Positions 13,391 to 53,576 of a DNA stretch of 58,575 bases are shown here, one piece after another. The stretch spans positions 1 through 58,575 of the forward strand of contig JAUWTD010000001.1 in the NCBI GenBank assembly GCA_030609775.1. The letters run 5' to 3'. Origin of the DNA: Candidatus Altiarchaeota archaeon. GTDB taxonomy: Archaea > Altiarchaeota > Altiarchaeia > IMC4 > QMZM01. The translations under genes and the position numbers were made by a program. Position 1 is the stretch's first letter. Each line of letters opens with the position of its first letter. The notes beneath the pieces were generated by a model that saw only the letters and a program-made list of their open reading frames with translations, was not told where the DNA came from and made no database searches.

Positions 13391-14812
13391 ATGAATGATA
13401 TAGTGGACTACAAACAGATAGAATGGAGTCGATACATGATAGCAGCAGCATTTATAGCAACACTATTTCTCAGCTCATGCTGCATTGAAATACCCCAGAT
13501 ACCTCCAATATTTGGAGAAAAAACAACAACCACACACGTAACCACAACCACGGAAATATCTGCAACCACAACAACCATAATCCAGTCAACAGACACCAGT
13601 ACAACAAGCCTCCGGCCACTCCCAACGACAACAACTACCATATATGATACCACGTACCATCCTACATTGGTTTCACTCGCACTAACAACCTACGACTATC
13701 ATGCATATGAGAATCCTGAGGTAAAAATACATGCAGAATACATTACCGAAGGCTGCGAAGATGATGAATGCAGACTATTTAGGATACATGAATATGCAAT
13801 CGACAACTTCTATTACAGAAAAAACGAAACCCAGGAAGACACCGAATGGCGGCCAGACACTGTAGGGGAATTATTAACCAAAAGATATGGCATGTGCACC
13901 CATTTCGCAGCATACTACTACAACTACCTTAAATCACTTGGCATAGAAGCACACGTAGTCCTCGTACCTGAGCACACATACACCTTATCTTGCAACCCCA
14001 ACATAACAAGACTACAAAGATACATAGAAAATGACTCCGACTTTAAAGAATATGTAAAAGACCATATCTTCCCAAGCTTCGAATTTGATATGAACGGTGC
14101 ATTCGACAAAACATGCATCCACCTAGAAGGACCAAGCGCCACAAAAGGTGCATACAGGTACCCTGGAGAATACTACGAGGAAACAAAATTTGTTGAAAAC
14201 CAAAACTACTTTATCAACCCAGAAACCGGAGACTGGGAATTCTTCAATAAAACAGACGTCAAAATAGAAGAACCCAGAGCACTCCTCCAACGCAACTACT
14301 TCTTTGAGATGGGAGAAAACAGCCGGATAACCTGGAAGATGGTAAAAACCAAGAAAAGAATCGACGGAGGATTAGACTACGACTTCGCAGCTAAAGACGT
14401 GAAGATGTCAACAAGATACGGGTACGCAACATTCACAATGCCCGAGTTAACCCGATTCGACAGGGTAAGAGTCAACATAACAATCAAGTCAACCAACCCC
14501 CTCTTATTTTACACACTACAGGAGATAAACCAACTCGACAACTTCATATATTTCATAGAAAACAGATACGCCTCAATAAAAGATTGCGAAGAAAAAACCG
14601 ACTGGTGGAGAATAGATGAAATACCAAGAACAGGAAGCCACTCATACGAATTTGATTACATACGATCCTGTAGCCACGCAGAAAGCGTAACATACTTAAG
14701 CAAAGAATGTTTAATTCCAGACGCAGGGAGAAGAATCTATGTCATCCACAATGAAGGACTATTTAAGACAAACCAAGTCAACATCAGCATAAAATACCTG
14801 GAATTCTTATAG
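13391..14812 (+). CDS. Membrane-anchored transglutaminase-like (Cys protease fold) protein with a poly-Thr stalk
   Basis: 473 aa with an N-terminal TM and a long T-rich linker. YGMCTHFAAYYYNYLKSLGIEAHVVLVPEHTY resembles the G-x-C-x-x-FA...GI.A..V...H core of transglutaminase-like domains. Confidence 0.5.
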   Translation: MNDIVDYKQIEWSRYMIAAAFIATLFLSSCCIEIPQIPPIFGEKTTTTHVTTTTEISATTTTIIQSTDTSTTSLRPLPTTTTTIYDTTYHPTLVSLALTTYDYHAYENPEVKIHAEYITEGCEDDECRLFRIHEYAIDNFYYRKNETQEDTEWRPDTVGELLTKRYGMCTHFAAYYYNYLKSLGIEAHVVLVPEHTYTLSCNPNITRLQRYIENDSDFKEYVKDHIFPSFEFDMNGAFDKTCIHLEGPSATKGAYRYPGEYYEETKFVENQNYFINPETGDWEFFNKTDVKIEEPRALLQRNYFFEMGENSRITWKMVKTKKRIDGGLDYDFAAKDVKMSTRYGYATFTMPELTRFDRVRVNITIKSTNPLLFYTLQEINQLDNFIYFIENRYASIKDCEEKTDWWRIDEIPRTGSHSYEFDYIRSCSHAESVTYLSKECLIPDAGRRIYVIHNEGLFKTNQVNISIKYLEFL

Positions 14813-29427: not shown

Positions 29428-29533
29428 TGTTAATGAATTATAATGTAAATAAATCACAAGATAAAATTAAACTAATAACATGTTAATGAGTTATAATGTA
29501 AATAAATCACAAGATAAAATTAAACTAATAACA
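29428..29533. repeat. Two tandem copies of a 53-bp AT-rich unit in the atpH/atpK divergent intergenic region
   Basis: tgttaatga(a/g)ttataatgtaaataaatcacaagataaaattaaactaataaca occurs at 29428-29480 and 29481-29533, with one mismatch. Confidence 0.9.
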
Positions 29534-33179: not shown

Positions 33180-33377
33180 TTGAAGTCAAAAAACGAGGTA
33201 TTTAACACAAGCCTGATGCTCGGCGTAGAATTTGCTTTAATAACCATAATCTTTATCTTCTCAGGATTCTACATAGGATCCCTGATCAATAAAACCGCTA
33301 CAGCAGTGTGCACAGTCACAGGAGCCACCCTCGGATTCGCCATCGCATTACGCAGACTAATCAAAAAAGTAGAATAA
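33180..33377 (+). CDS. Small two-TM membrane protein after atpI (AtpZ/AtpI-like assignment is tentative)
   Basis: 65 aa with a TTG start, 17 nt after atpI. It has two hydrophobic helices and a basic tail. Confidence 0.4.
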   Translation: MKSKNEVFNTSLMLGVEFALITIIFIFSGFYIGSLINKTATAVCTVTGATLGFAIALRRLIKKVE

Positions 33378-33582
33378 AATAGTTTTTCTGTTTATTTCAA
33401 TTAAAAACATTAAACAATCTTTTGACTCAGGAATCATGTTTAATGTATCAACTGATGCCTGCGCTTCCAACCTACCAGGTCCATCGACATCGACATCACC
33501 GCCATCAGAATAGATTACTGTATTAATTTTAGGGTTGATGCTATTATCCCCTAAGACCTTAGCATAAAATTCCAGATACTCC

Positions 33583-33690
33583 AAAAATCAACAACTCCAC
33601 CCTGAAGGGTGGAGTATGAACTTACAAAGTCGGCAATTAGGCATTCATCTGCGGCTTAAAAGCCGCAGTATTCTGCCGACTTTGTAATAA
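33583..33690. repeat. 108-nt double-hairpin element, copy 1
   Basis: 100% identical to 40641-40748. Hairpin 1 is ctccaccc-tgaa-gggtggag (33595-33614). Hairpin 2 has a 12-bp outer stem acaaagtcggca/tgccgactttgt, an internal loop and an 8-bp inner stem ctgcggct-taaa-agccgcag (33624-33685). Confidence 0.9.
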
Positions 33691-34033
33691 ATCAGAGCCA
33701 ATTTCAAACCCTCTGCGCCTGATGAATCTTAAGCCCCACCGGATCATACCAGTAAGAATAATCCCCTTCCAACTCAATAGAACCCAATCGATTCAACAGT
33801 AATGAAACCAGACGCCTGATTACTAACTAAACCCACCTCACTAGGACAACTTAACTCAAGCTTGATCTCTCTTCTCCCTTCAGTTAAGGGCACTAGAGTA
33901 GACCAGATCCACCTGATTTGTATCTTTTGTATCTTCGCCTATATCTTTGGTATCCGCGCAACCAGATAACAGAATACTTGAGGTTAACAAAACCAAACAA
34001 CAAAATAGATTAAATTCCCTTCAAGAAATCATC

Positions 34034-37318: not shown

Positions 37319-38026
37319 ATGAAACCTCAGCTTTCAAGGATATTGATTTTCCTTGGAATCGCCTCTATTCTATCATTCACCCTATTTTCTATCATACTCT
37401 ACGTCTTCTTTAACCCGACTGCAACAACTACAACAACTACAACATCAAATACTACAACAACCACAACAACAACCAGCACCACGACACCGACTACGACAAC
37501 AACCAGCACCACGACACCGACTACGACAACAACCAGCACCACGACATCGACCACCCGACCTATTGAATGCGGATCGAATATAGACTGCGGGGAAAAACAC
37601 TATTCTGGAACATATTTCTGCAACAAGGAGGTTATCTCACTTATGGAATGCACCCCAAAATGTGTTCACGGCATTTGCAAGGAAAAATGCGTACCCAAAC
37701 CAATAGACCAATGCGGCAGAAACGAGACATGTATACCAGGTAGAAGAGCCTGCATAAAAGATGATGAATTCGAGAATGTGTCATCCTTTATTGAGATAAG
37801 GTATGGTGAATATGCCATATCATATAAACACCAGTTCAGGTTAAACTACACAGTCTACATATCAGAATATGAGATTAGTGCAGTGCTCGTAGATGTGATA
37901 AAACCTGGTGGAAAAGAAGAGCAGACACTCATCAAATGGGAGAGGGATACAATAATAGATGACATAAAAATAGGGCTCTATGCAATAAAGAGTACATCAG
38001 TTATCCTCTGGATACAAAAAACGTAA
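37319..38026 (+). CDS. Membrane-anchored or secreted protein with a poly-Thr stalk and a Cys-rich domain
   Basis: 235 aa. N-terminal TM, about 50 aa of T/S/P, then a CGSNIDCGEKHYSGTYFCN...C..KC..G.C...C module. Confidence 0.55.
   Translation: MKPQLSRILIFLGIASILSFTLFSIILYVFFNPTATTTTTTTSNTTTTTTTTSTTTPTTTTTSTTTPTTTTTSTTTSTTRPIECGSNIDCGEKHYSGTYFCNKEVISLMECTPKCVHGICKEKCVPKPIDQCGRNETCIPGRRACIKDDEFENVSSFIEIRYGEYAISYKHQFRLNYTVYISEYEISAVLVDVIKPGGKEEQTLIKWERDTIIDDIKIGLYAIKSTSVILWIQKT
37463..37555 (+). repeat. Three tandem copies of a 30-nt unit encoding TTTTTSTTTP
   Basis: aaccagcaccacgaca(c/t)cga occurs at 37471, 37501 and 37531, an exact 30-nt period. Confidence 0.85.
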
Positions 38027-38811: not shown

Positions 38812-39210
38812 ATGGCAGAGGATAGATTCGATCAAATTCACAGAATCCTGAAGAGGCTTTATGACGAACACGACGACATAGACGCGTGCATGGTCGTCAG
38901 AAAAGGCATGGAAGGGGTTATTATGTTCCCTGATGATTTCATAGACAAGATCTCAACAATCTGGGATCCCTTAAATGATATAATAAACAAACTAATGGAG
39001 ATCATCTCAGATAATGTGATGTACGGAATAGAGAAAACATATATGGAGGTATTTGACTACGGCATAATATTCCATACAATATCTATGTCAGATACGTCAC
39101 TTGTTACATTCATCAGCAAAAACACAGACAATGAAACCATAGACACCCTCTCAGGAAAACTCAAAGATATTATCGAGGCCAAAAACAGAATCCAAGAGAT
39201 AATTGAATAA
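38812..39210 (+). CDS. Small cytoplasmic protein, Roadblock/LC7 (MglB)-like (tentative)
   Basis: 132 aa, starting 2 nt after the KaiC-like stop. The alternating pattern IDACMVVRKGMEGVI ... YGIIFHTISMSDTSLVTFI fits the Roadblock alpha-beta-alpha layout. Judged by eye only. Confidence 0.4.
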   Translation: MAEDRFDQIHRILKRLYDEHDDIDACMVVRKGMEGVIMFPDDFIDKISTIWDPLNDIINKLMEIISDNVMYGIEKTYMEVFDYGIIFHTISMSDTSLVTFISKNTDNETIDTLSGKLKDIIEAKNRIQEIIE

Positions 39211-40663
39211 AAAAAAAATGATAAATATGAAAAGACTCGTTCTTGTTCTTATATTTTTGTCTCTGATAATACCCGTATCGTCTTTTGACTACGTTGATGA
39301 AAAGAGGAATTTGCCTGCAGTAGAAAGTGAACTTATGAAGTATTTCTGCAAGGATGTAAGAAATAATAAAGAATGCAATATACCCTCTCAATGGGCTGAA
39401 GACTTCTGGGGGGTTTGCTGCGGAGGATTATGCAACAGCTTTACAAAGGATTGCAGGCATTCAGTCAACAGCGAAGTATCCCTCCTTGATGTCATGGTAA
39501 AACTACCCTGCAAAGATGCAGGCACAGGAGATAGATGTGACATACCAGACGAACTCAGCGAAAAATATAATTTATGGGGCATCTGCTGCTATAATAAATG
39601 CAATTACTGGGAGGAAGAATGCAGCGGAGGCTATGAACCAGATTATAGGAAAGACGAAATAGGCTATGATGAGAAAATACCCTCAGAAGAGGAAATCGAG
39701 AAGGGATTAAAGGTATTAGCCATATTCTCATGCGTAGGGGTAAAAGATGATGAACCATGCCAAATAGATGACAGGCACCTAACAGAAGAATTTAACCTGT
39801 TTGGAGTATGCTGCCTAGGCAAATGCCATTTCAGAAGCACAGAATGCACCCCCGAGACAAATGAAACAACACCGGATTTAGTCATAATCGGAATGGAAAT
39901 ATATCCCGGGGATTTAAGCAATACACTGCAGATAAAAGAAGTCAAAATAACAATCCAGAATCAAGGTAAAACAGCAACAACAAACAGATTCTGGATTGAA
40001 TTACTGAAAGACTATGAATCTGCACCCACCACAAAAGAGATAAAAAACACTCTTGACGCAGGTGAAGATATCATCATATCATTCTACGACCTGCAAGCAT
40101 ACAAAGAACCCGGAGAATACATACTAACAGCCACCATAGACTCAAATCCATCATCCTTAAAAGACAACCTAATCAAGGAAACAGATGAAACCAACAACAA
40201 AGCCACATTGAGGATATTTATCGGCGGAACAATCAAAACAGGAACCCAACCCAAAGAAAACACAGACACCCCACCATTGTGCGGCGATGGACACTGCGAA
40301 GAAGACGAAAAAAAAACGTGCCCTACCGACTGTGACACCCAAGAAGATGAATCCAAGGAATCACCCCTACCTGCATTAATAATCCTTGCCCTATTCTTTG
40401 CTGTTTTCACATACTTCCGAAGATTAAGGAAATCTTCTCACGACCGAAAACAACAAAAACAACAGATGAAAGAATTAATAGACGAGAAAAAAACCATAGA
40501 GGAAATGATAACACTTGCAAAGAAAAAATACCACAAAAGAAAAATAGACGAAGAAAGCTTCAAAGAAATCATTAAAGAAAACCAAAAAAGACTAATAGAA
40601 GTAGAGACAAAAATTGAGAACAAAAGAAATAATTCAATGAAAAAATCAACAACTCCACCCTGA
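39203..40663 (+). CDS. Single-pass membrane protein: 3 Cys-rich modules, a CARDB-like domain, TM helix and cytoplasmic coiled-coil tail
   Basis: 486 aa, overlapping the upstream gene by 8 nt. There are three copies of C-x6-7-C-x-I-(P/D)...(W/F)G(V/I)CC..(K)C......C. PDLVIIGMEIYPG...ITIQNQG...ETDETNNKATL is CARDB-like. TM helix LPALIILALFFAVFTYF is followed by a K/E-rich tail. The last ~7 codons and the stop lie inside the 108-nt element. Confidence 0.65.
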   Translation: MNKKKMINMKRLVLVLIFLSLIIPVSSFDYVDEKRNLPAVESELMKYFCKDVRNNKECNIPSQWAEDFWGVCCGGLCNSFTKDCRHSVNSEVSLLDVMVKLPCKDAGTGDRCDIPDELSEKYNLWGICCYNKCNYWEEECSGGYEPDYRKDEIGYDEKIPSEEEIEKGLKVLAIFSCVGVKDDEPCQIDDRHLTEEFNLFGVCCLGKCHFRSTECTPETNETTPDLVIIGMEIYPGDLSNTLQIKEVKITIQNQGKTATTNRFWIELLKDYESAPTTKEIKNTLDAGEDIIISFYDLQAYKEPGEYILTATIDSNPSSLKDNLIKETDETNNKATLRIFIGGTIKTGTQPKENTDTPPLCGDGHCEEDEKKTCPTDCDTQEDESKESPLPALIILALFFAVFTYFRRLRKSSHDRKQQKQQMKELIDEKKTIEEMITLAKKKYHKRKIDEESFKEIIKENQKRLIEVETKIENKRNNSMKKSTTPP

Positions 40664-40748
40664 AGGGTGGAGTATGAACTTACAAAGTCGGCAATTAGGC
40701 ATTCATCTGCGGCTTAAAAGCCGCAGTATTCTGCCGACTTTGTAATAA
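40641..40748. repeat. 108-nt double-hairpin element, copy 2
   Basis: Identical to 33583-33690. It lies exactly between the convergent genes 39203..40663 and 40751..41839, and the stop codon TGA of the former (40661-40663) is in the hairpin-1 loop. Confidence 0.9.
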
Positions 40749-40750
40749 CA

Positions 40751-41839
40751 CTACTGCAACCGAGCCCTGCACAAGTATGCAGATAATATGGACGCAATAA
40801 TCAGAGCACCCACTATTGAAGAATATATTGAAAAAGTAAGGATACCCGACTCATAACCGAAGACCGCTACAATAATCCCTATAGTCATGTTGGTGTTTAA
40901 TAAAGCAGCACTATATCTTGCATTCTGTGGAAAAACAAATCTGCCTGCGATGTATGTTCCCACATACCTTGAAACAAAACACACTATAAGAAAAACCAAC
41001 AACAAAGGCAGATTCCCGATAAGCGCCAATAGATTAATCTTTAAGCCAACAGAGAAAAAAAATATCGGAGCAAAGAAACCAAAAACCATACCTCGGAGCT
41101 TCATTTCCAGATTCTCGTGCTGAACAACAATTCCCGAGGTTATCATACCCATCAAAAACGCTATCATAGCAGACTCAAAACCCGCCCGCTCAGAGACAAC
41201 TGCAACCCCCAGAATCAGGAGGAGAATGATCTTGAATTCAAATTCTGCAACATTTCCCCTATAGTGCTTAAATATCTGCCCACCCAACAAAGGAAAAACC
41301 TTGGCGAACACAAAAAGCCCGATAACAAGTAAGATGATAAACTCAGGGTGAGGGGTGAAAAACACACCCAACATAGACATGGTCATAAGCTCGGTTATCA
41401 TGGCCGCTGAAAGAATTATCATCTTGTTTTCAGTCATAGCACCAGTCTGCTTCAATATAGGATAGATTATTGCAATCGATGTCGTCGACAATGCTATTGA
41501 TGTGATAAGGGTTTGATCAATGTCCATGCCCAAAACATAATGTGAAAGAACAAAAACCGAGACAAACGGAAAGACAAAAGCAAAAGACCCTATCAACAAA
41601 CTGGGTTTAAATCTCTTTTGAAGCTGATCCAGATCAATCTCTAATCCAGCTACATACATGAGGATAAGGATCCCGATATCAGCAAGAACCGTGATGATCA
41701 CACTATCATCCAAATGCAAGAAATGCTGCGCGAGCATACCTGCAAGAAGCTCAGCTATCGCTGTTGTGAAACCCAATTCAAGGGCGATAAACCCGCTGAG
41801 TACTATAAGCGTACTCATGATAATAATCTCTTCTCTCAT
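40751..41839 (-). CDS. Cation:proton antiporter (CPA1/CPA2-type Na+/H+ exchanger family)
   Basis: 362 aa with about 11 TM helices. AELLAGML....L, ADIGILILMYVAGLEIDL and F.APIFF...GL motifs are typical of the Na_H_Exchanger family. Confidence 0.7.
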   Translation of the reverse strand: MREEIIIMSTLIVLSGFIALELGFTTAIAELLAGMLAQHFLHLDDSVIITVLADIGILILMYVAGLEIDLDQLQKRFKPSLLIGSFAFVFPFVSVFVLSHYVLGMDIDQTLITSIALSTTSIAIIYPILKQTGAMTENKMIILSAAMITELMTMSMLGVFFTPHPEFIILLVIGLFVFAKVFPLLGGQIFKHYRGNVAEFEFKIILLLILGVAVVSERAGFESAMIAFLMGMITSGIVVQHENLEMKLRGMVFGFFAPIFFFSVGLKINLLALIGNLPLLLVFLIVCFVSRYVGTYIAGRFVFPQNARYSAALLNTNMTIGIIVAVFGYESGILTFSIYSSIVGALIIASILSAYLCRARLQ

Positions 41840-45102: not shown

Positions 45103-45552
45103 ATGAAAAACAATATGCTTACTATAGGGCTGATCTGCCTAATATTGTTAAACACCGGATGCATAGACAGAGAACAGTTAATAGACTATATGAGGGGCAG
45201 AGAACCTCTTCCTGAGTCAACAACGAAAACAACAACCACAATAGCCACAACAACATCATCTACAATAATCGAAGAAACAACCACAACATCAACCGCATCA
45301 ACAACTACATCAACCACAACAACACTCTTCAAGGATGCGATATGTGAAGGAAAATGGGGCCAAGTCGACAAAGACCGATGTTACCTGAATCTTGCAAACG
45401 AAAAGATGGATTCAACCATATGCGAACGAATAAAACAAAAAAGCCAGATAGATGACTGCTACTATGGAGTAGCCCTTATAACAGAAAACCGTACACTCTG
45501 CAACAAGATATTAGAAGACCGCCAAAGAGAACGCTGCTTTGAGTTCCTGTAA
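45103..45552 (+). CDS. Lipobox/poly-Thr protein with three C-x2-I...C-Y repeats
   Basis: 149 aa. Signal ending in LLNTGCID, a T-rich linker, then DRCYLNLA...ICERI......DDCYYGVA....LCNKI.....ERCF. Confidence 0.55.
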   Translation: MKNNMLTIGLICLILLNTGCIDREQLIDYMRGREPLPESTTKTTTTIATTTSSTIIEETTTTSTASTTTSTTTTLFKDAICEGKWGQVDKDRCYLNLANEKMDSTICERIKQKSQIDDCYYGVALITENRTLCNKILEDRQRERCFEFL

Positions 45553-47006: not shown

Positions 47007-47137
47007 ACCAATTATCGTATTATCTAGAATAAAGACCTATCACCTATATAAATACAAATATATGTCTTCGGGCATATCAAGAATTATTTATAAGGTTGAA
47101 GGCCATAAGTAAATGAAATAGATTATAGTAAATTATA

Positions 47138-47722
47138 ATGAAAAAACTAATTGTTGTTGCCCTGCTTTTATTGGTTTGCGGATGCATAGGAGAAGAAAAA
47201 ATCGTATGCAATAAACCCTACATACAGGTCGGAAGGGATTGTTGCCTGGATACAAACGATAATAGGATATGTGATATACACGAGGCAACCACCCCAACCC
47301 CAACCACAACAACCACAACCACCACAACAACCACAACAACCACAACAACCACAACAACCACAACAACTACTTTAGGGATTCCTGAATCCTGCCTGGATGC
47401 ATTCAAGATAGTAAAGGAACACCCATACATTGATTCACTAGTTGAAGACAATAGATGTGATCCCTTCACATGGGATAGGGTTGGTCCGATGATCCGATTA
47501 AAGGATTGGACAATTGTTGAGTGCTCAGAGGGAGGAGTAGATAAGGATTTTTGTATGGACTCTCAAATAGGTGAAAAAGCAGGTGAAAGCGAAAAAGACG
47601 ATATAAGGAGGCTGTTTGGAAGAGAACTAGGAGACTTCTATGTCTTCACATACCAATGTGATATCATATCGCGTTTTACATTATTTTTGGATTCAGATAC
47701 TTTAGAGATGGCCAACCTTTAG
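47138..47722 (+). CDS. Lipobox/poly-Thr secreted protein, tandem paralogue 1
   Basis: 194 aa, beginning MKKLIVVALLLLVCGCIGEEKIVCNKPYIQVG, with a run of about 26 Thr/Pro residues. The C-domain is shared with 47762..48283. Confidence 0.6.
   Translation: MKKLIVVALLLLVCGCIGEEKIVCNKPYIQVGRDCCLDTNDNRICDIHEATTPTPTTTTTTTTTTTTTTTTTTTTTTTLGIPESCLDAFKIVKEHPYIDSLVEDNRCDPFTWDRVGPMIRLKDWTIVECSEGGVDKDFCMDSQIGEKAGESEKDDIRRLFGRELGDFYVFTYQCDIISRFTLFLDSDTLEMANL
47288..47371 (+). repeat. ACN-codon microsatellite (aca/acc units) encoding the poly-Thr tract
   Basis: acaaccaca-type units are reiterated over about 84 nt. The paralogue 47762..48283 has only 4 Thr at the same point. Confidence 0.85.
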
Positions 47723-47761
47723 ATGAGGGGGGGAAAATAATTCACCAAAAAAAAAAATAAG

Positions 47762-48283
47762 ATGAAAAAATTAGTTGTTGTTGCTCTGCTTTTATTAGTC
47801 TGCGGATGCATAGGAGAAGAAAAAATCGTATGCAATAAACCCTACATACACGTTGGCAGCAATTGTTGCCTGGATATAAACGATAATATGATATGTGATA
47901 TAGATGAGGCAACCACTACAACCATACATGATATGCCCAAATCCTTCCAGGAGGTATTTAGAATAGTAAAGGAACACCCAGATATTGAGTTAATAGTTGA
48001 AGACTATGGCTGCGACCCCTTCACATGGGATAGGGTTGGCCCGATGATACGGATAAAGGATTGGAAGGCGGTTGAGTGCTCAGACGGAGGCTCAGACGAA
48101 GATTTTTGCAGCGACTTTACAAAAGGAGACGACGCAGGTGAAAACGAAAAAGATGACATAGAAAAACTGTTTGGAAGAGAACTTGAAGACTTCTATGCCT
48201 TCAGATACCTATGCAAGGAGAGAGTGGAACTGGTAGTATTCCTAGACCCCTCTACAGGAGAAATAGCCACATTGAGACAATAA
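47762..48283 (+). CDS. Lipobox secreted protein, tandem paralogue 2 (short Thr tract)
   Basis: 173 aa. The N-terminal 30 aa are nearly identical to paralogue 1, and the C-domain is collinear (IVKEHP.I...VED..CDPFTWDRVGPMIR.KDW..VECS.GG.D.DFC). Confidence 0.6.
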   Translation: MKKLVVVALLLLVCGCIGEEKIVCNKPYIHVGSNCCLDINDNMICDIDEATTTTIHDMPKSFQEVFRIVKEHPDIELIVEDYGCDPFTWDRVGPMIRIKDWKAVECSDGGSDEDFCSDFTKGDDAGENEKDDIEKLFGRELEDFYAFRYLCKERVELVVFLDPSTGEIATLRQ

Positions 48284-48538
48284 ATTCCACAATTGCAGAG
48301 TAAGAGATTACCCACAAAAAAAAAAAAATGTAAACAGATCATAAACACAACATACAACCAATCATCGCCAAGGCTTGATGACACCAAAATATAAAAAAAA
48401 AGGTTAGTGTAAACAGATAGTATCATCGTTAACGTTTGATGACACCTAAAATAAAACAGAATAATAGAAAAACTGTTGCAGTGGGGCTAAGCGACAGCGT
48501 ACGCCCCACCTGTTTTGATCAAACTTTTCTTAAAAGTT

Positions 48539-48622
48539 TGCGGGGGAAGGGATTCGAACCCTCGAAGGTCTACACCACAGGATCTTAAGTCCTGCCCCTT
48601 TGGCCAGCTAGGGTACCCCCGC
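48539..48622 (-). tRNA. tRNA-Leu (anticodon UAA), class II with a long variable arm
   Basis: Reverse complement: gcgggggta-ccct-agctggccaa-aggg-g-cagga-ctTAAga-tcctg-tggtgtagaccttcga-gaggg-ttcgaat-ccctt-cccccgc-a. The 7-bp acceptor stem, GGTTCGAATCC T-arm and 84-nt length fit. No CCA is encoded. Confidence 0.85.
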
Positions 48623-48706
48623 AAAAGAGGAAATTGAATTTTTTTTTGATTGAATGTGATTTGTTTTGGGGATGCAACACCTTTTTCTAAAGGGGGTTGC
48701 AATCCA

Positions 48707-48737
48707 GCCCCTTTGGTCAGCTAGGGTACCCCCGCAA
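48707..48737 (-). other. Partial duplicate of the tRNA-Leu 5' portion (nt 1-29 plus 2 upstream nt)
   Basis: gcccctttgg(t/c)cagctagggtacccccgcaa at 48707-48737 versus 48594-48624: 30 of 31 identical, offset 113 nt. Beyond it the sequence diverges and no 3' half follows. Confidence 0.8.
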
Positions 48738-52046: not shown

Positions 52047-52119
52047 ACACAATGTTATCATTCAATAAAGCGTGAATTGATTCTCGGTCGCGTGTACGGC
52101 AGGGACAGAAGCAGGGTAT
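52047..52119 (+). repeat. Direct repeat X, copy flanking the 3' side of the Fic gene
   Basis: The core gtgaattgattctcggtcgcgtgtacggcagggacagaagcagggtat (52072-52119) matches 53529-53576 at 44 of 48 positions. Weaker similarity extends about 25 nt upstream (acacaatg..attcaa). Confidence 0.8.
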
Positions 52120-53498: not shown

Positions 53499-53576
53499 AC
53501 ACAATGATTCAAAAAAAAATGAAAAGCTGTGAATTAATTCTCGGTCGCCTGTACAGCAGGGACAGAAGCAAGGTAT
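53499..53576 (+). repeat. Direct repeat X, copy flanking the 5' side of the Fic gene
   Basis: See 52047-52119. Confidence 0.8.

Follow-up and report, generated by a model that had tools for sequence, protein, structure and literature searches.

A perfect 108-nt repeat in a Candidatus Altiarchaeota genome is very probably a transposase-less miniature of the IS200/IS605 type

Two sites in a 58,575-nt stretch of DNA from Candidatus Altiarchaeota archaeon (contig JAUWTD010000001.1; this whole stretch is called the window) carry the same 108-nt sequence, and the question arises as to what kind of element can be present twice without a single difference. The copies at 33583-33690 and 40641-40748 lie in the same orientation, 7058 nt apart, and are identical at 108 of 108 positions, with identity extending 0 nt beyond either end and with unrelated flanks, just as had been described in an earlier note on this DNA. 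Given such length and perfection, a chance origin of this repeat within 58.6 kb is impossible, and the recent mobility proposed in the earlier note accounts best for the lack of any difference between the copies. The termini of the element are not inverted copies of each other and no target-site duplication is present at either copy, and hence the remark that it is not a classical MITE, a class defined by terminal inverted repeats and target-site duplication, was correct. The absence of both is exactly the trait of single-strand transposons of the IS200/IS605 type, which the earlier note had not considered. The repeat can be identified with high probability as a PATE, a miniature IS200/IS605 element in which a left and a right end are joined without a transposase gene. 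Its kind of mobile DNA is already known and fairly ordinary; the element itself is new, and it is very probably not a new small RNA gene.

Folding of a 126-nt stretch around copy 1 gives an MFE of -51.1 kcal/mol on the plus strand and -55.6 kcal/mol on the minus strand, corresponding to z = -7.9 and z = -7.5, respectively, against 200 dinucleotide shuffles. Two hairpins make up the structure. One is the GC hairpin, with 9 bp (ctccaccc-tgaa-gggtggag and an additional A-T pair); the other is composite, its 14-bp outer stem being separated by internal loops of 13 and 5 nt from an 8-bp inner stem that closes a 4-nt loop. The layout, loops and inner stem drawn previously thus stand, and the outer stem, given there as 12 bp, is extended to 14 bp. 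On the minus strand the GC hairpin is succeeded by TTGTTGATTTTT, and a simple scan also flags this arrangement as terminator-like.

The order of these parts becomes meaningful on the window minus strand, which corresponds to the transposon top strand for both copies. It reads TTAC, 15 nt, a left-end (LE) hairpin, a right-end (RE) hairpin and a 10-nt tail, which is the layout of an IS200/IS605 element without the transposase gene, the complete sequence being ttATTAC / aaagtcggcagaata-CTGCGGCT-ttta-AGCCGCAG-atgaatgcc-taat-tgccgactttgtaagttcata-CTCCACCC-ttca-GGGTGGAG-ttgttgattt-tt. Each copy consists on this strand of the left-flank motif TTATTAC (33684-33690 in copy 1), a transposable unit of about 99 nt and a final TT. 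The TTAC within this motif (33684-33687; copy 2, 40742-40745) adjoins the left end and is the presumed target and left cleavage site. What had been called the inner stem is the LE subterminal hairpin CTGCGGCT-TTTA-AGCCGCAG (33649-33668; copy 2, 40707-40726), with GAATA before and ATGAATGCC after it, and what had been called the GC hairpin is the RE subterminal hairpin CTCCACCC-TTCA-GGGTGGAG (33595-33614; copy 2, 40653-40672), with CATA before it. Both hairpins (ATA-CTGCGGCT-TTTA-AGCCGCAG and ATA-CTCCACCC-TTCA-GGGTGGAG) have an 8-bp stem and a 4-nt loop and point in the same orientation. The right-end tail TTGTTGATTT of 10 nt (33585-33594; copy 2, 40643-40652) is the presumed right cleavage region. 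Full-length ISs inserted at different sites have their end at TTGTTTATTT, 10 nt past the hairpin. The TT at 33583-33584 probably belongs to the flank. The outer stem is formed between TTACAAAGTCGGCA (33674-33687; copy 2, 40732-40745), comprising TTAC and the first 10 nt of the left end, and TGCCGACTTTGTAA (33622-33635; copy 2, 40680-40693), located immediately 5' of the right-end module. A unit of about 99 nt is too short for a transposase, and its sole internal ORF has 23 aa.

Relatives of the element were found in two scans. When a genome collection was scanned with the GC hairpin 20-mer, mostly unrelated bacteria were returned. Two archaeal MAGs were also among the matches, one of Candidatus Altiarchaeota with a short homologue (L004) and another with a longer homologue (L084). 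The mostly bacterial matches later turned out to be informative, since the hairpin is a recurrent IS200 end: according to tblastn, Methanoperedens (L028), an actinobacterium (L040) and AT-rich contigs (the L097 group) have it just downstream of tnpA, and its presence at this place in unrelated archaea and bacteria identifies it as a recurrent IS200 right end. As a separate observation, an Andersenbacteria MAG (JBBDZC01) contains the same 20-nt hairpin at 11 loci (including L002, L015 and L021), and in the three loci that were read it forms the centre of a longer palindromic repeat. The second scan, of metagenomes with CTCCACCCNNNNGGGTGGAGTAT, found L092, L109, L093, L104, L116 and L119, and in addition a group (L098, L099, L111 and L120) in which a different sequence follows the hairpin.

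In L099 of this group, the sequence past the hairpin is the 3' end of an opposite-strand gene encoding a 158-aa IS200-type transposase (Pfam Y1_Tnp, E = 4.7e-38). Read in the tnpA direction, this IS is ttcATTAC / aatcacgcaaggata-CTGCGACC-ttta-GGTCGCAG-aggaattgcg ... tnpA ... caaata-CTCCACCC-ttta-GGGTGGAG-ttgtttattt, with the same 15-nt spacing from TTAC to the left hairpin and the same 10-nt tail as in the window element. Homologues of its TnpA include an 'IS200/IS605 family transposase [Candidatus Altiarchaeota archaeon]' with 79% identity and a hypothetical protein of Altiarchaeales IMC4 with 61% identity. Five further full-length ISs with the same ends belong to the clade of the L099 TnpA (L128/129, L130-133, L134-136, L137 and L138), of which that represented by L130-133 occupies three insertion sites; the full-length relatives come from metagenome contigs and Candidatus Altiarchaeota MAGs. 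The LE module of the window element is 73-76% identical to those of the tnpA-bearing ISs L099, L128 and L130, and its RE module is 67-87% identical to those of three full-length ISs, the value of 87% being that for L099, whose RE stem is identical. TTAC is invariant in 10 of 10 aligned miniatures and in all six full-length ISs examined, and it precedes the left hairpin by 15 nt in the window element and in the ISs alike. IS200-type elements from Altiarchaeota and from related metagenomic archaea (L099, L128, L130, L137 and L138) share with the window element homologous LE and RE (67-87%), TTAC, spacing and tail, but they are about 660-750 bp long, carry a gene for a Y1 transposase of 154-160 aa and do not have the long outer stem. 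All TnpAs of this clade that were looked up are from assemblies other than that of the window.

Besides these full-length ISs, gene-less miniatures with the layout of the window element are represented by L092, L084, L004/L109, L093, L104, L116 and L119, among which L109 is the same locus as L004, and L092 is a near-identical copy with different flanks from an independent metagenome. The search for further copies that had been recommended has revealed a wider family in metagenomes and MAGs. A covariance model, R1, was built from ten miniatures and scores the two window copies at 119-120 bits (119.9 bits for copy 1, minus strand), and it also matches the left ends of full-length ISs. Apart from these two, R1 found no copy in the 58.6-kb window, and the syntenic Altiarchaeota contigs L123-L127, which total about 88 kb, gave no copy either. 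Given a long enough piece of DNA, the miniatures prove to be multicopy. Four miniature copies are present on the 10.8-kb contig L104 (1109-1225, 2199-2311, 8012-8115 and 8728-8835) and three on the 11.4-kb contig L093 (372-472, 10474-10565 and 10570-10783). These contigs, with 49% and 54% G+C, respectively, represent dense miniature clusters with two subfamilies side by side; the long subfamily has an insert with GGAGGTG, and two of the L093 copies are in tandem, 4 nt apart by model coordinates. Some relatives end in GTAATG at a start codon; a function as plus-strand 5' leader was nevertheless rejected, as they precede unrelated genes and as no gene lies downstream of either window copy. A viral origin was likewise dismissed: one scan for viral patterns came back empty, and the other gave the single locus L121, judged unrelated by inspection.

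Covariation, which the earlier note had suggested examining, is indeed present. In the alignment of the ten miniatures, 91.8% of cells contain standard pairs, and changes on both sides are observed in 12 pairs, as compared to 5.9 +/- 1.3 in shuffles (none of 500 reaching the observed value) and to 1-4 when partners are slid. All three helices are kept by compensatory changes, including the outer stem (helix 1), in which 6 of 14 pairs have changed on both sides, and the LE hairpin (helix 2). Non-Watson-Crick cells, when read on the minus strand, comprise eight G.T and two A.C, both of the latter in one truncated copy, and such a wobble bias toward the minus strand is as expected if the hairpins matter on the transposon top strand. 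In the outer stem, which is 12-14 bp long, the left terminus with its TTAC is base-paired to the segment that adjoins the right end, and this stem is kept in a compensatory manner across miniature subfamilies whose stem sequences are unrelated. It is found among miniatures only, since full-length ISs do not exceed shuffles in their long-range LE-RE pairing. One may speculate, with considerable reservation, that this miniature-only stem is an adaptation, either as a single-strand clamp that would juxtapose the ends for a TnpA acting in trans or mask the cleavage site, or as a host-selected RNA 3'-end or terminator module.

The closest described counterparts of the window element are the PATEs. 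They were defined in Haloquadratum as elements that neither have inverted terminal repeats nor duplicate their target, that are too short for a transposase and whose palindromes, located near the termini, are related to those of the IS605 type; some are present in near-identical, 'homogeneous' copies (PMC3119063). Geobacillus stearothermophilus has PATE-like elements as well (PMC10055086). All PATE traits that were compared at the sequence level are found in the window element, namely lack of terminal inverted repeats and target-site duplications, mutually similar subterminal palindromes near both ends, ends homologous to those of Y1 ISs, asymmetric geometry with TTAC and insufficient length for a transposase. 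The PATEs of Haloquadratum walsbyi and Geobacillus resemble it in being gene-less, in lacking inverted repeats and duplications and in having near-terminal palindromes related to IS200/IS605 (PMC3119063; PMC10055086), and they also share a conserved short oligonucleotide at the left boundary and 'homogeneous' near-identical copies. Unlike them, the window element resides in a Candidatus Altiarchaeota host, has as its partner an IS of the IS200 type with tnpA only, not of the IS1341/tnpB type, and possesses the long covarying stem that joins the left terminus to sequence adjoining the right end. The most widespread archaeal IS family is IS200/IS605, and the highest median IS content of any archaeal phylum has been reported for Altiarchaeota (PMC13343696).

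Several observations are less readily accommodated by the PATE assignment. No tnpA was found in the 58.6-kb window, the left and right hairpin stems differ at three of eight positions, and a long outer stem is not among the known requirements of IS200/IS605 ends. Moreover, identity of the two copies includes a TTA that precedes TTAC and a TT that follows the tail. A 4-nt target alone does not predict this, and it implies either a target preference longer than TTAC, as it suggests, or slightly different boundaries. Across elements, the left flank loosely follows TTNATTAC.

The mechanistic model of such 'peel and paste' transposition in the IS200/IS605 family is IS608 of Helicobacter pylori, whose TnpA acts on the top strand alone: subterminal imperfect palindromes are bound, and insertion takes place 3' of TTAC without duplication (PMC3201880). 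In IS608, TTAC lies outside the IS, 19 nt from the foot of the left hairpin, and the right cleavage site is 10 nt 3' of the right hairpin (PMC3201880). The window element is alike in its TTAC at the left end, 15 nt (19 with TTAC) to the left hairpin, a 10-nt tail and strand-specific structure; it differs in having neither tnpA nor tnpB and in its unrelated hairpin sequences, so that this comparison is one of sequence geometry. By analogy with IS608, a Y1/HUH TnpA encoded elsewhere would bind both subterminal hairpins, which would form on the top strand only, that is the window minus strand, when the DNA is single-stranded. On the left side, this TnpA would cut 3' of the flanking TTAC, and on the right side about 10 nt 3' of the right hairpin; the element would leave as a single-stranded circle and be pasted 3' of another TTAC with no target duplication. 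Both the mobilisation in trans and the exact cleavage positions are thus carried over from IS608, and the two perfect copies would reflect recent transposition into two gene-end regions of the Candidatus Altiarchaeota genome.

The surroundings of the two copies can be compared with those of relatives. The 7 kb between them contain secD/secF, a cytidylyltransferase-like gene, a gene for a Thr-rich protein, a KaiC-like ATPase gene and a CARDB-domain membrane protein gene, with the same synteny in relatives, and the two repeats are therefore not borders of an island; attL/attR sites of an integrated element were ruled out on the same grounds, since the genes between the copies are conserved housekeeping genes. 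Copy 2 lies between two convergent genes. One of them is an antiporter gene on the minus strand, with the stop codon at 40751-40753, 2 nt from the end of the copy, whose closest homologues are 65-69% identical at the protein level, those with a named source being from Candidatus Altiarchaeota. The other is the CARDB-domain membrane protein gene on the plus strand (39203-40663), which reads 23 nt into copy 2 and stops at a TGA in the loop of the GC hairpin. At the position of copy 2, the relative L126 has no spacer at all, its antiporter and CARDB genes being 0 nt apart; the nearest relatives are 65-69% identical at the protein level. The CARDB protein aligns with its L126 orthologue up to about 12 residues from both C-termini, and hence the insertion of copy 2 replaced the extreme tail only. 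The right-end hairpin and T5 on the minus strand may end the antiporter transcript, as a side effect. Copy 1 lies within a gene-free gap of 656 nt (33378-34033) that is bounded by secD and by an ORF for a small membrane protein (33180-33377), to which a 75-aa protein of L126 is related. A pseudogene disrupted by copy 1 was rejected as well, because the 201-aa membrane-protein gene found at the same position in L126 has left no detectable trace in the window.

Among the alternatives to a PATE, the one favoured at the outset holds that the minus strand encodes an RNA serving the host, that is a structured small RNA or a 3'-UTR module with its own terminator, possibly exapted from a transposon relic and stabilising or terminating the mRNA upstream of it. 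The very stable fold, the covariation in all helices, the bias of wobbles in favour of the minus strand, the T run past the GC hairpin, the beginning of copy 2 only 2 nt past the stop of a co-oriented antiporter gene and the restriction of the outer stem to miniatures would all suit such an RNA. However, identity stops at the element ends and no upstream sequence is shared, and hence there is no common promoter; copy 1 is 343 nt away from the nearest co-oriented gene, and TnpA substrates are equally expected to exhibit a top-strand wobble bias. An Rfam search, as had been advised, matched no family: with Rfam 15 at gathering thresholds over the whole window only tRNA passes, and permissive local searches gave best matches of 20.7 and 16.2 bits versus thresholds of 55 and 45, so that a known RNA family can be set aside. 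Archaeal termination is not known to need hairpins, which we count as a further argument against this reading. Homology to the transposon ends explains both hairpins together with their spacing, and the proposal of a small RNA with its own terminator, given hairpins homologous to IS200/IS605 LE and RE, no shared promoter and no Rfam match, is not upheld. It is needed for none of the observations, and we regard a host-serving RNA as improbable.

About as hard to maintain is the view that the repeat is a domesticated REP/BIME-like sequence served by a RAYT (TnpA-REP) and not an IS-derived miniature. REP/BIME and RAYT systems do resemble it in that short GC-rich palindromes are recognised by relatives of Y1 transposases (PMC2817692; PMC8266576), and in a Dehalococcoidia MAG (DATDPC01; L050, 6851-7291) a short Y1 tnpA-like ORF lies between inverted GC hairpins (…GGGTGGAGCATGGG / CCCATGCTCCACCC…) identical to that of the window element. 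Together with more than 25 hairpin-bearing contigs of this MAG, this locus looks like a REP/RAYT system using the same palindrome. REPs are, in contrast, single hairpins of high copy number in alternating orientation, with a RAYT gene flanked by inverted REPs, whereas the window contains a two-ended unit at low copy, with only two copies in 58.6 kb and none in syntenic relatives. Its LE and RE hairpins are in direct orientation with the asymmetry of a true IS, alternating REP arrays are absent, and its ends match tnpA elements that have direct LE and RE at several insertion sites; inverted flanks are seen only at the unrelated L050. A REP/RAYT origin is accordingly given very little weight. 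Finally, assembly duplication, or identity produced by gene conversion between unrelated spacers, would account for the perfect identity, but with both copies inside one contig with unique, unrelated flanks, a near-identical copy with other flanks in an independent metagenome (L092) and a wider family in existence, it is most unlikely of all.

The weak echo of the element noted earlier at about 48860 is merely an 11-nt exact match, and with an E of about 1 such a match is due to chance. On the minus strand at 48703-48737, the first ~35 nt (5' half) of the tRNA-Leu(TAA) gene (48538-48623) are repeated with 94% identity about 80 nt upstream, and a hairpin GGATTGCAACCCCC...GGTGTTGCATCC follows this repeat. 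No matching 3' half or T-arm was found elsewhere in the window, and the region folds no better than shuffles; a split-tRNA half, an integration-site remnant and a pseudo-tRNA are possible readings of the repeat. Near the tRNA gene, local duplications (47130-47654 versus 47754-48209, and 52072-52119 versus 53529-53576) of 77-92% identity are probably paralogous genes or domains. An AT-rich spacer (32% G+C) contains, at 29428-29533, a 53-nt unit twice in tandem with 98% identity. At 37405-37564, 45213-45331, 47275-47380 and 13523-13607, threonine codons (ACA/ACC) form runs that cause many spurious direct-repeat families; the first run encodes the Thr-rich stretch of the ORF at 37319-38026.

For annotation, the repeat should be labelled a non-autonomous IS200/IS605 element of the PATE type and not a candidate small RNA, and the alignment and covariance model can be used to annotate its family. 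It records recent transposon activity in an Altiarchaeota genome and illustrates how insertions reshape gene ends, since copy 2 provides a surface-protein gene with its last 8 codons and the TGA stop while lying 2 nt past the stop of the antiporter gene. The clamp stem specific to miniatures poses a small, testable question on how gene-less single-strand transposons are mobilised, and, should the tentative proposal of a clamp or an RNA module prove true, it would constitute a design principle that has not been described for PATEs.
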